In this document: one piece after another, positions 30,873 through 32,100 of the stretch
Numbering within the stretch: the first letter of the stretch is position 1
Layout: each line of letters begins with the position of its first letter
Source of the DNA: a virus
Direction: 5' to 3' (one strand)
Length of the DNA stretch: 64,000 bases
IMG/VR virus record: IMGVR_UViG_3300029777_000247
Coordinates: 1 to 64,000 of that record
Position numbers and translations under genes: made by a program
Notes under the pieces: generated by a model
Databases searched by the model: none
What the model was told of the DNA's origin: nothing
The model's input: the letters and a program-made list of their open reading frames with translations, nothing else

Positions 30873-31637
30873 TTAATATTGAATTTTGTTGTTTGGATAC
30901 AGTTCATTAAACATATCGAAAACTTTTCTCAGTCCAAGACCTTCTTTGCTTGGCACCCAGATTTTCTTCGGGTTCCAATTCTTCCATACGCCATCATACT
31001 CTGGTGCAGTTGCATCATACTTTGGATTATCTACCCATTGACCACCATTCATACTATACTCGTACTTCTTTGGGTCAAGTTCGGCAAGTGTCAGGAATCT
31101 ATTATCGTTCTTGTTATGAGCTCCAAATCCACAAAACGTGCATCCGGTACGATCACACCCAGTACAGCACAATGGCGCATCCGGTTTATCACTCGTAGGA
31201 ACAATATTGCCATAGACATCTGCAATTTGAATTCCTGACTGTTTGATGAAAGTGAGCACGTCTTGCTCAGTCCAAAAACTCATAGGCTGACTTGTTGGAG
31301 ACTTGCTATCAAAAGCATTACACCCATGTCGAATCCAAGCTTGCTTGCGAACACGACTTTCATCTGTCAACGTTCCAATAATGGGTTTACGCTTGGTTGC
31401 TCTTGCGTACTTCTTCATTGGACCTTTTTTCATAACTGAACAGCAGTAATGAGAAATTGCAAACGGAAGTTCTTGTGTTGCTGGCAACCATTTTTCCTTA
31501 TTGAACATGGATTTTGTTCCAACCTGCATTTCAGCTCCCGGCTCATTACCAAGTAGAATTGTCCGTCTGTTTCCCTGAAAGACTCCTGTTTCATCGTAAA
31601 GCCACGGGTTGCTAAAGACACCTCCCGGACAGTTCAT
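30873..31637 (-). CDS. C-terminal part of the PAPS-reductase-like protein, in the +1 frame relative to the N-terminal fragment
   Basis: Cys cluster CCTGCDRTGCTFCG; its frame is open back through the GA repeat to a TGA overlapping the ATG; no proper RBS before its own ATG. Confidence 0.55.
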   Translation of the reverse strand: MNCPGGVFSNPWLYDETGVFQGNRRTILLGNEPGAEMQVGTKSMFNKEKWLPATQELPFAISHYCCSVMKKGPMKKYARATKRKPIIGTLTDESRVRKQAWIRHGCNAFDSKSPTSQPMSFWTEQDVLTFIKQSGIQIADVYGNIVPTSDKPDAPLCCTGCDRTGCTFCGFGAHNKNDNRFLTLAELDPKKYEYSMNGGQWVDNPKYDATAPEYDGVWKNWNPKKIWVPSKEGLGLRKVFDMFNELYPNNKIQY

Positions 31638-32100
31638 CCTTAAACCCAGAAGTTCCGGTCTTTTCTTGAGAGTTGTTCTTACTCTCTCTCTCTCTCTCTC
31701 TCTCTCTCATGGTGGCTGCGCCGCTATTTCTGATTCGTCTAGCGTAATAAATCGCTTCCGCCACTTCTTTAGAGATAAGAGGATAGCCATATGTAGAGAC
31801 CACATCACTAAATCCCATCTTGGGATAAACAAAAACCGCGTCTGCGTCTCGTGCAAATTTCTGGATTGATGAGTATTCCAAACCAGTATTACTAAACACA
31901 AGCGGGACATCTGGAAATAACTGTTTCGTCAGATGAGCAAGTACAGTAGAATCCTTACCACCAGAGAAGCTAACATACACACCACCGTCGTAATGCATAT
32001 ACCATTCTTGAATGCGGTTTTGAGTGATCTGAATCTTTCGATCGAGAGGAAGTGCCTGAAGCTCCTTCAATCTTTTAGCATCGTGAACTGTATTATCCAT
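31612..32100 (-). CDS. PAPS-reductase-like PP-loop ATP pyrophosphatase, N-terminal fragment (truncated after the (GA)13 repeat)
   Basis: PP-loop SFSGGKDS; ORF runs through a GA repeat (RERERERE) and stops 23 codons later. Confidence 0.65.
   Translation of the reverse strand: MDNTVHDAKRLKELQALPLDRKIQITQNRIQEWYMHYDGGVYVSFSGGKDSTVLAHLTKQLFPDVPLVFSNTGLEYSSIQKFARDADAVFVYPKMGFSDVVSTYGYPLISKEVAEAIYYARRIRNSGAATMRERERERESKNNSQEKTGTSGFKDELSGRCL
31682..31708. repeat. (CT)13 / (GA)13 dinucleotide microsatellite inside the coding sequence
   Basis: Direct read: a then ctctctctctctctctctctctctctc (27 nt). Confidence 0.95.

Follow-up and report, generated by a model that had tools for sequence, protein, structure and literature searches.

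Poly-A contingency loci have been described in the agt and rIIA genes of the lytic coliphages T2 and T4, where homopolymers of at least 6 nt were studied experimentally, with reversion about 1000-fold above that of a point mutant, and where switching T2 agt (DNA glucosylation) ON or OFF trades off McrBC against TgvAB restriction (Gomez, Barrick & Waters, bioRxiv 10.1101/2025.10.21.683753). Homopolymers only were analysed in that work. Here, we describe a length-variable GA dinucleotide tract inside a gene of the 3′-phosphoadenosine-5′-phosphosulfate (PAPS) reductase family, located at positions 30,873 to 32,100 of IMG/VR virus record IMGVR_UViG_3300029777_000247 (positions 1 to 64,000 of that record were analysed, and this whole 64,000-nt stretch is called the window below). 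As in T2/T4 agt, the simple sequence repeat (SSR) lies within a phage open reading frame (ORF), and the reversible frameshifting of a DNA-modification gene seen in agt is the logic that we propose for this locus. Unlike the T2/T4 tracts, it is a dinucleotide repeat of up to 15 units, its carriers are uncultivated temperate gut phages, the gene belongs to a different family, the evidence is comparative, and SSRs recur across the family by conservation or convergence.

Polyguanine tracts in receptor-binding-protein genes have been reported for Campylobacter Fletchervirus phages (Sorensen et al. 2021, Cell Rep 35:109214). Both cases involve hypermutable repeats in phage coding sequence, which in Fletchervirus create ON/OFF subpopulations; the Fletchervirus tracts are G7-11 in host-recognition genes, whereas a GA dinucleotide in an intracellular enzyme gene of the replication module is involved here. 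In bacteria, the Helicobacter pylori outer-membrane genes oipA, sabA, and hopZ undergo phase variation by CT/GA dinucleotide repeats, and phase-variable DNA methyltransferases underlie the phasevarions of Haemophilus and Neisseria. The present locus has the CT·GA repeat chemistry, the modulo-3 frame logic, and the population signature of the H. pylori genes, and phasevarions switch a DNA-modifying enzyme, as may be the case here. Unlike these chromosomal genes, in which the tract usually lies near the 5′ end, the phage gene carries its tract mid-gene, in a tolerated spacer of the catalytic domain. With regard to the encoded protein, DndC, SspD, and BrxP are PAPS-reductase-family sulfur-transfer enzymes of DNA phosphorothioation (PMC12707154, PMC12839542); the window protein resembles them in its PP-loop SGGKDS, in the PF01507 superfamily assignment, and in conserved cysteines compatible with an iron-sulfur (Fe-S) cluster.

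Our literature search turned up neither this tract nor any dinucleotide contingency locus in phages, and no contingency locus of any kind in this gene family. The phage contingency loci known so far are single-base runs from a few cultured lytic phages, and the dinucleotide case is new; further new aspects are the length of the repeat, its occurrence in abundant, temperate, uncultivated phages of the human gut, and a natural allele spectrum visible in public metagenomes. Changes in tract length shift the reading frame, ON and OFF alleles coexist in nature, and both halves of the gene are under purifying selection. Our preferred interpretation, to which we give a probability of roughly 0.8, is that of one PAPS-reductase-family gene in which a hypermutable (GA)n tract, placed where a non-conserved spacer of the catalytic domain begins, sets the reading frame, that is, a slipped-strand contingency locus.

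Structure of the split gene

The tract is a perfect (CT)13.5 repeat at 31682-31708 on the plus strand, 100% pure according to Tandem Repeats Finder, and is the sole dinucleotide run of more than four units in the window; a first-order Markov model of the window gives 5e-10 as the expected number of such tracts. On the minus strand, on which the gene is read, the hypervariable element is a 27-nt alternating purine run (31682..31708), composed of (GA)13 at 31683-31708 followed by the G of GTA. The first G of the tract is the G of the Met131 ATG, and the order is ...GCAGCCACC-ATG(31710-31708)-(GA)13-GTAAGAAC....

In the 13-unit allele, the N-terminal ORF (31612..32100, minus strand) encodes 162 aa and begins at the start codon 32100-32098, with the Shine-Dalgarno sequence AAGAGG (32108..32113, minus strand), the only ribosome-binding site of the gene, 7 nt to its 5′ side. 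Residues 1-131 are genuine, containing the PP-loop SFSGGKDS and the first three beta strands of the PAPS-reductase fold, with a match to Pfam PF01507 at residues 42-85. After residue 131, the ORF reads RERERERE from the tract and then 23 out-of-frame codons up to a TAG stop at 31612-31614, well short of a full fold. The C-terminal part (30873..31682, minus strand; 269 codons and a stop, VRTTL...YPNNKIQY*) lies in the +1 frame relative to the N-terminal ORF and holds the second half of the PAPS-reductase core together with the conserved cysteines of HYCC, HGCN, and CxxCx4CxxC. Its frame stays open from a TGA overlapping the ATG that directly precedes the tract as far as the stop at 30873. A first-pass annotation made from the letters of the window had proposed that (GA)13 splits a PAPS-reductase-like gene, that the N-terminal part terminates 23 codons after RERERERE, and that the C-terminal part is open through the repeat with no ribosome-binding site of its own; tract, ORFs, and frames all proved to be as described.

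The 254-aa ORF called automatically for the C-terminal half starts at an incidental in-frame ATG (31635..31637, minus strand) without a usable Shine-Dalgarno sequence, as TAAGG directly abuts this ATG. At this position, 19 of 22 relatives have ACG, two have ATG, and one has GCG. An internal restart for the C-terminal half was rejected because the start codon is not conserved and no spaced Shine-Dalgarno sequence is present.

A full protein is encoded only when the number of GA units (n) leaves a remainder of 2 after division by 3. Alleles with n = 5, 8, 11, and 14 give a single protein of 403-409 aa (407 aa at n = 11 and 409 aa at n = 14), and n = 17 would give 411 aa. At other lengths a stop follows 7-32 codons on and the C-terminal half is left without a start: n = 10, 13, and 16 yield 160-164 aa, and n = 12 and 15 yield 139-141 aa, a TAA standing immediately 3′ of the tract in alleles with n divisible by 3. 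The window carries an OFF allele (n = 13), which the gain of one unit or the loss of two turns ON; the first-pass annotation was right on both changes, and its fused length of about 415 aa has to be corrected to 409 or 407 aa.

The conceptual fusion of the two parts scored 58.3 bits against the Pfam model PF01507 PAPS_reduct (cut-off 22.5) and contains the PP-loop SFSGGKDS, which places it in the superfamily, and it matched PHROG 424 (E 1.3e-48) in one stretch over residues 15-361. Among 5.8 billion proteins, 7,982 homologues were found, the best of which are single ORFs of 360-490 aa. Protein P0001 (403 aa), which is 95% identical to the conceptual fusion and represents a cluster of 710 sequences, reads ...AATMRERVRTTL..., corresponding to (GA)5 in frame. 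The possibility raised at first pass that relatives would conserve the halves as independent genes was not borne out, homologues being mostly single proteins of about 400 aa.

Modelled by AlphaFold with 105 homologues, P0001 gave a structure (predicted local distance difference test, pLDDT, 88.6; predicted template modelling score, pTM, 0.83) that is confident except for residues 121-190. The tract codons (131-134) stand at the start of this low-confidence insert, and core beta strands lie on both sides of it. The fold resembles solved PAPS and adenosine-5′-phosphosulfate (APS) reductases and CysD, and CysH, APS reductase, and CysD head the hits of structure searches. The NCBIfam CysH and CysD models align at residues 211-291 as well as at the PP-loop, and therefore the 162-aa product lacks half of the catalytic domain. 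The gene is best explained as encoding a single PAPS-reductase-family enzyme of about 405 aa, with a PP-loop ATP-pyrophosphatase fold and probably an Fe-S cluster.

Tract length polymorphism and selection in close relatives

We compared 41 contigs of the window lineage, the window included, from IMG/VR and from JGI/ENA metagenomes. Most were found by flank patterns blind to the state of the gene; a second pattern was placed on the YYARRI motif, and one locus came from a protein-based search. The IMG/VR, ENA, and Logan contig sets may share source samples, so that counts are not fully independent. Tract lengths of n = 4, 5, and 7-15 were present, with 15 contigs ON and 26 OFF; ON alleles were found at 5, 8, 11, and 14 units, all n = 5 alleles being in frame. 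The contigs that encode the C-terminal-only products P0008 and P0018 proved to carry this gene too, divided at the GA tract (n = 4, 7, or 9). Canonical-flank alleles with n ≥ 7 fell into the three frames at 7:7:12, for which a uniform distribution was not rejected (p = 0.38).

The tract differs in length in seven of ten contig pairs that share an identical 1,203-nt gene sequence. Contigs L001 and L004 have 3 mismatches over 5.2 kb, with the tract (7 versus 9 units) as the sole indel, and L023 and L044 have 12 mismatches over 6.6 kb and one gap, again the tract (12 versus 8 units); the flanks of the compared pairs are 99.7-99.9% identical. Therefore, the tract changes much faster than point substitutions accumulate. 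A comparison with related genomes had been proposed as a check at first pass, with a single repeat length and an intact ORF as the outcome that would speak against a switch. Lengths from 4 to 15 with identical flanks, both ON and OFF alleles, purifying selection, and fused homologues support the slipped-strand ON/OFF switch that was suggested there.

Both halves of the gene are well preserved. In every locus reaching far enough, the N-terminal part has 131 codons from MDNTVHD and the C-terminal part has 267-272 codons ending in YPNNKIQY, and the only additional lesion in about 45 loci is one stop in L038, a 2.1-kb contig. The ratio of nonsynonymous to synonymous divergence (dN/dS) was 0.037 in each half at a proportion of synonymous differences (pS) of about 0.24 (Nei-Gojobori method, 14 haplotypes). 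By our own estimate, a permanently silent C-terminal half should have gained stops at this pS, and none was seen. Expanded alleles also occur in frame, at 8, 11, and 14 units, from which it is clear that ON states are among those the tract passes through.

Some features of the allele series were noted in addition. No 6-unit allele occurred among about 50 loci, although 4, 5, and 7 units are common, which may be due to chance or sampling. Protein P0004 combines (GA)4 with a compensating indel about 30 nt downstream, giving an intact protein of 400 aa with ten codons in an alternative frame; read from the sequence, this second-site change shows that the spacer is tolerant of frame. Among L130-L132, L135, L136, L139, and L141, some alleles have an extra T (GAGTTAAG) at the 3′ edge of the tract, and others have a T-to-A change at this edge by which the in-frame TAA is lost. 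An origin of (GA)5 by deletion between GAGA repeats was considered and rejected, since the pattern hits in its support were chance matches; four "impure" hits (TMR-DAQQSLMATR-VRT; L029-L031 and L033) are pyruvate carboxylase genes.

Repeats in divergent and sister lineages

An (ER)n run occurs at the same alignment position in about 45 of the 105 full-length homologues of 55-65% identity, where it follows the conserved YYARRIR motif directly and is itself followed by a non-conserved spacer (34-155 aa). In divergent lineages (50-60% identity; contigs of 17-146 kb), all loci that were read as DNA had pure GA/AG runs of 7.5-15 units there. The N- and C-terminal halves are in one frame (ON) in L127, L133, L134, L140, and L142, and in different frames (OFF) in L126, L128, L129, and L080, and probably in L138. 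Only 19% of Arg codons in the window phage are AGA and 44% of Glu codons are GAG, and the tracts are nevertheless pure; the repeat is therefore a feature of the DNA rather than a requirement of the peptide. The best 80 IMG/VR relatives, mostly of 35-45% identity, are without any tract, so that the tract is restricted to the YYARRIR clade and its near relatives and does not extend to the whole PHROG. A second PAPS-like copy with its N- and C-terminal halves in different frames was observed at L134:1004-1907.

Sister lineages carry repeats of other types. The P0085 cluster (L149-L156; 54% identity; phage contigs of 122-134 kb) has no GA tract but a C-rich one in the same spacer, about 8 codons past the motif (for example, L149:1615-1630). 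In this cluster, a pure C9 splits the gene into 154 aa and 240/246 aa (OFF), and the ON forms of 409/410 aa have an interrupted tract, 7 or 10 nt, or 9 nt with a 1-nt insertion downstream; split forms predominate among the members listed. In the P0006/P0135 cluster (L157-L162; 69% identity), A9 is OFF (152 aa) and A10 is ON (418 aa), the tract lying at about nt 1437-1446 of L157/L160 in the main gene, and the aligned stretch of about 180 nt is otherwise identical save for one substitution in L158. Searching IMG/VR with a pattern of the poly-A flanks gave no match.

Directly upstream in L157-L162, and overlapping the start of the main gene, lies a paralogous PAPS_reduct gene with a poly-G tract at nt ~748-756, in which G7 gives 290 aa (ON) and G8 gives 230 aa (OFF). 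The states of the poly-A and poly-G tracts are independent, all four ON/OFF combinations being present, and the poly-G alleles in IMG/VR contigs (L163-L169) were G7 four times, G8 once, and interrupted twice. As a control, the tract-less P0049 cluster, in which the spacer is short, has 13 full-length proteins among the 15 members listed. The occurrence of four repeat types in one gene family argues that switchability itself is maintained, and different repeats at the same position in sister lineages point to mutability being selected rather than accidental. These sequences are best read as indicating a contingency locus that has been maintained repeatedly in this gene family.

Proposed mechanism and alternative explanations

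The locus has the features of an SSR contingency locus, namely a frame-shifting repeat within an ORF, polymorphism among near-identical genomes, and ON and OFF alleles with an otherwise intact gene. We propose that length changes would arise via slipped-strand mispairing during replication, and that the gain or loss of units would flip the gene between the full protein and a truncated product. We infer that this switching is reversible within phage or lysogen populations. The switch would serve as bet-hedging for an enzyme function that pays off in some hosts and exacts a cost in others.

Several observations weigh against this interpretation. Among consensus alleles, ON is not over-represented (15 of 41 in all, and 8 of 33 where n ≥ 7, which is near the one-third expected at random), OFF products were found on many more contigs than ON products among the cluster members listed, and the 137-aa product of n = 9 is indexed in 379 blocks of the collection; counting of exact sequences favours short products, and the OFF excess is only indicative. 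This excess would also fit a currently dispensable gene. On the side of the enzyme, solely the Pfam superfamily model exceeds its threshold, and the window has no DndA-, DndD-, or DndE-like partner genes. The uniform frame distribution could possibly result from neutral drift while a gene of the lytic module is silent in lysogens, or from leaky expression by slippage.

Slippage in gene expression is the alternative that survives best, and we consider it improbable: RNA polymerase or the ribosome would slip on the repeat, so that every allele gives some full-length protein and the tract length tunes its amount. A 9-bp RNA:DNA hybrid, or P-site tRNA-Arg(AGA)/tRNA-Glu(GAG), can pair perfectly again once displaced by 2 nt, and uniform frames (7:7:12) in spite of strong purifying selection are expected if the frame matters little. 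The sister lineage uses an A9/A10 tract, and A9-A10 is a classic substrate of transcriptional slippage in bacteria. However, elongation-phase slippage on GA dinucleotide repeats has, to our knowledge, not been documented, alleles with n divisible by 3 hit a TAA right after the tract, and lysogeny with a silent lytic gene explains the uniform frames as well. The polymorphism at the DNA level is real whichever explanation holds.

Somewhat less probable again is that the gene is dispensable and the tract is a mutational hotspot that inactivates it repeatedly, with no selected role in switching. The OFF majority (26 of 41), the commoner OFF products among the cluster members listed, including the n = 9 product in its 379 blocks, the additional 1-nt changes at the tract edge in some alleles (L130-L141), and the absence of the gene from the closest cultured replication module, that of Geobacillus virus E3, all agree with such gene loss. 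Simple decay would, however, interrupt or delete the tract and add other lesions, whereas dN/dS is 0.037 in both halves and about 45 loci are free of other stops or indels, save L038. Expanded in-frame alleles at 8, 11, and 14 units, pure tracts that persist across clades at 50-60% identity, and different SSR types in the same spacer of sister lineages, where interrupted tracts are ON, likewise argue against gene loss.

An error of sequencing or assembly over a difficult repeat, with a true gene that is intact, had been offered as the alternative in the first-pass annotation, and is now very improbable. Dinucleotide repeats are prone to stutter in PCR and sequencing, and the data are mostly short-read metagenome assemblies. 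Nevertheless, the 26-nt tract is shorter than the read length and the assembly k-mers, and the 162-aa product, which needs exactly 13 units, was present on 16 contigs that had been assembled independently by three pipelines (ENA, Logan, and JGI); n was 13 in all of its loci that were read, and these fall into two haplotypes that share 96% identity. Lengths also span 11 units, not plus or minus one, and alleles recur across samples, as in the 379 blocks with the n = 9 product. Finally, two subunits assembling from separate N- and C-terminal polypeptides, as the two ORFs annotated by gene callers in many contigs and a split within the low-confidence loop of the AlphaFold model might suggest, are the least probable alternative, since the C-terminal half has no conserved start codon or Shine-Dalgarno sequence, the split point and overlap shift with n, family members are mostly fused, and both halves supply strands to one alpha/beta domain.

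Carrier phages, predicted function, and gene neighbourhood

Contigs of 0.2-1 Mb carry the element in five index blocks with the 162-aa product (the longest is 609,664 bp), and the element is therefore an integrated prophage of about 120-146 kb. The carrier is a temperate phage of the human gut. Among 50,697 GenBank phage records, blastn with a word size of 11 gave no match to the gene, and tblastn relatives were at most 41% identical and came only from phages of Ruminococcus, Clostridium perfringens, C. difficile, Enterobacter, and Vibrio; these records contained no cultured model for the gene.

Membership of the protein in the assimilatory PAPS/APS reductases CysH found no support, nor did the corresponding "sulfur auxiliary metabolic gene (AMG)" reading. 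Scores against the CysH equivalog models were far below their cut-offs (NF002537, 25.5 bits against 154; TIGR02055, 17.4 against 235), and the C-terminal catalytic motif ECG[LI]H of CysH is absent from P0001 and the window protein. The "DndC-like" membership given at first pass found no support either: neither NCBIfam nor PADLOC yielded a membership above threshold, and DndC, SspD, and BrxP models matched only the PP-loop region (in PADLOC, BrxP with E 3e-11 at residues 26-79 only, SspD at residues 43-86, and DndC with E 0.004 at residues 20-57). Unlike these enzymes, the switch-gene protein has a distinct C-terminal domain of about 110 aa, and no DndA/D/E, SspB/C, or BREX-core partners stand beside the window gene.

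The invariant cysteines are CC at 214-215, C255, C307, C315, and C318, with C310 conserved in at least 90% of sequences; C307, C310, C315, and C318 belong to the CxxCx4CxxC run. We take them to resemble the CC...CxxC Fe-S ligands of APS reductases. DNA methyltransferases of the N6/N4 or C5 type adjoin the gene in L129, L142, and L126, and in the window a C5 cytosine DNA methyltransferase of 460 aa (36550-37932, minus strand) lies 4.5 kb from it. In the divergent phage L134 (4604-5830, minus strand), a class-V aminotransferase gene (cysteine-desulfurase family; Pfam E 2e-61) overlaps the PAPS-like gene, an adjacency that recalls DndA-DndC. Together, the cysteines, the methyltransferase neighbours, and the L134 aminotransferase favour a sulfur-dependent nucleic-acid modification with a cost-benefit trade-off.

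Tentatively, the likeliest function would be the sulfur-dependent modification of phage DNA or nucleotides; this substrate class (sulfur or DNA-modification chemistry, with an anti-restriction role) we infer from the fold, the cysteine motifs, and the neighbouring genes. A sulfur mark would protect from some restriction systems and expose the phage to modification-dependent ones. It is conceivable, at a similarly cautious level, that the PAPS-reductase-like genes of gut Firmicutes phages form a conflict-related module, probably for sulfur-dependent modification of phage DNA or nucleotides, in which evolvability itself is selected and different lineages have independently acquired different hypermutable repeats in one tolerated spacer: (GA)4-15, C9, A9/10, and, in a paralogue, G7/8. 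On that view, individual phage populations would contain both modified and unmodified members, much as phasevarions produce in bacteria. The literature search found no experimentally defined function for this phage protein family, and the natural ON and OFF alleles could be used for finding the role of the enzyme. Phage genes labelled "PAPS reductase", commonly annotated as AMGs, would on this reading have a trade-off typical of defence and counter-defence and not that of a housekeeping helper of sulfur metabolism. In addition, gene callers split the gene in most assemblies, so that virome surveys miscount and mis-annotate it.

The module around the gene in the window comprises a YorF-like gene, a Sak4-like ATPase, a 230-aa zinc-ribbon protein, the switch gene, a DnaB-like helicase, a primase, a RecJ-like nuclease, and the DNA polymerase III (Pol III) alpha subunit. 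Its closest cultured counterpart is in Geobacillus virus E3 (NC_029073 78760-92148, our L148; helicase 36% identity), which has the same order from the YorF-like gene to Pol III alpha without the switch gene, two small hypothetical genes taking the place of the zinc-ribbon and PAPS-like genes. As the module order is kept without it, the switch gene is an accessory insertion.

Minor observations concern the neighbouring genes. In L138 (2143-4337), the N-terminal half (224-aa ORF) and the C-terminal half (233 aa) lie about 1 kb apart, and the gap holds a 170-aa ORF with C5-methyltransferase-like motifs (PPCTEFS and ENPVG), apparently a gene nested in the spacer. Pfam and PHROG match the C5 methyltransferase of the window in two stretches set apart from each other, a pattern that hints at an insert or a fusion. 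The Pol III alpha subunit (1,254 aa; 20958-24722, minus strand) contains an intein at residues 663-914 (Pfam Intein_splicing). Short imperfect tandem repeats with periods of 11 and 21 and about two copies lie at 32155-32235, immediately upstream of the switch gene and in the 3′ end of the gene for the 230-aa zinc-ribbon protein.

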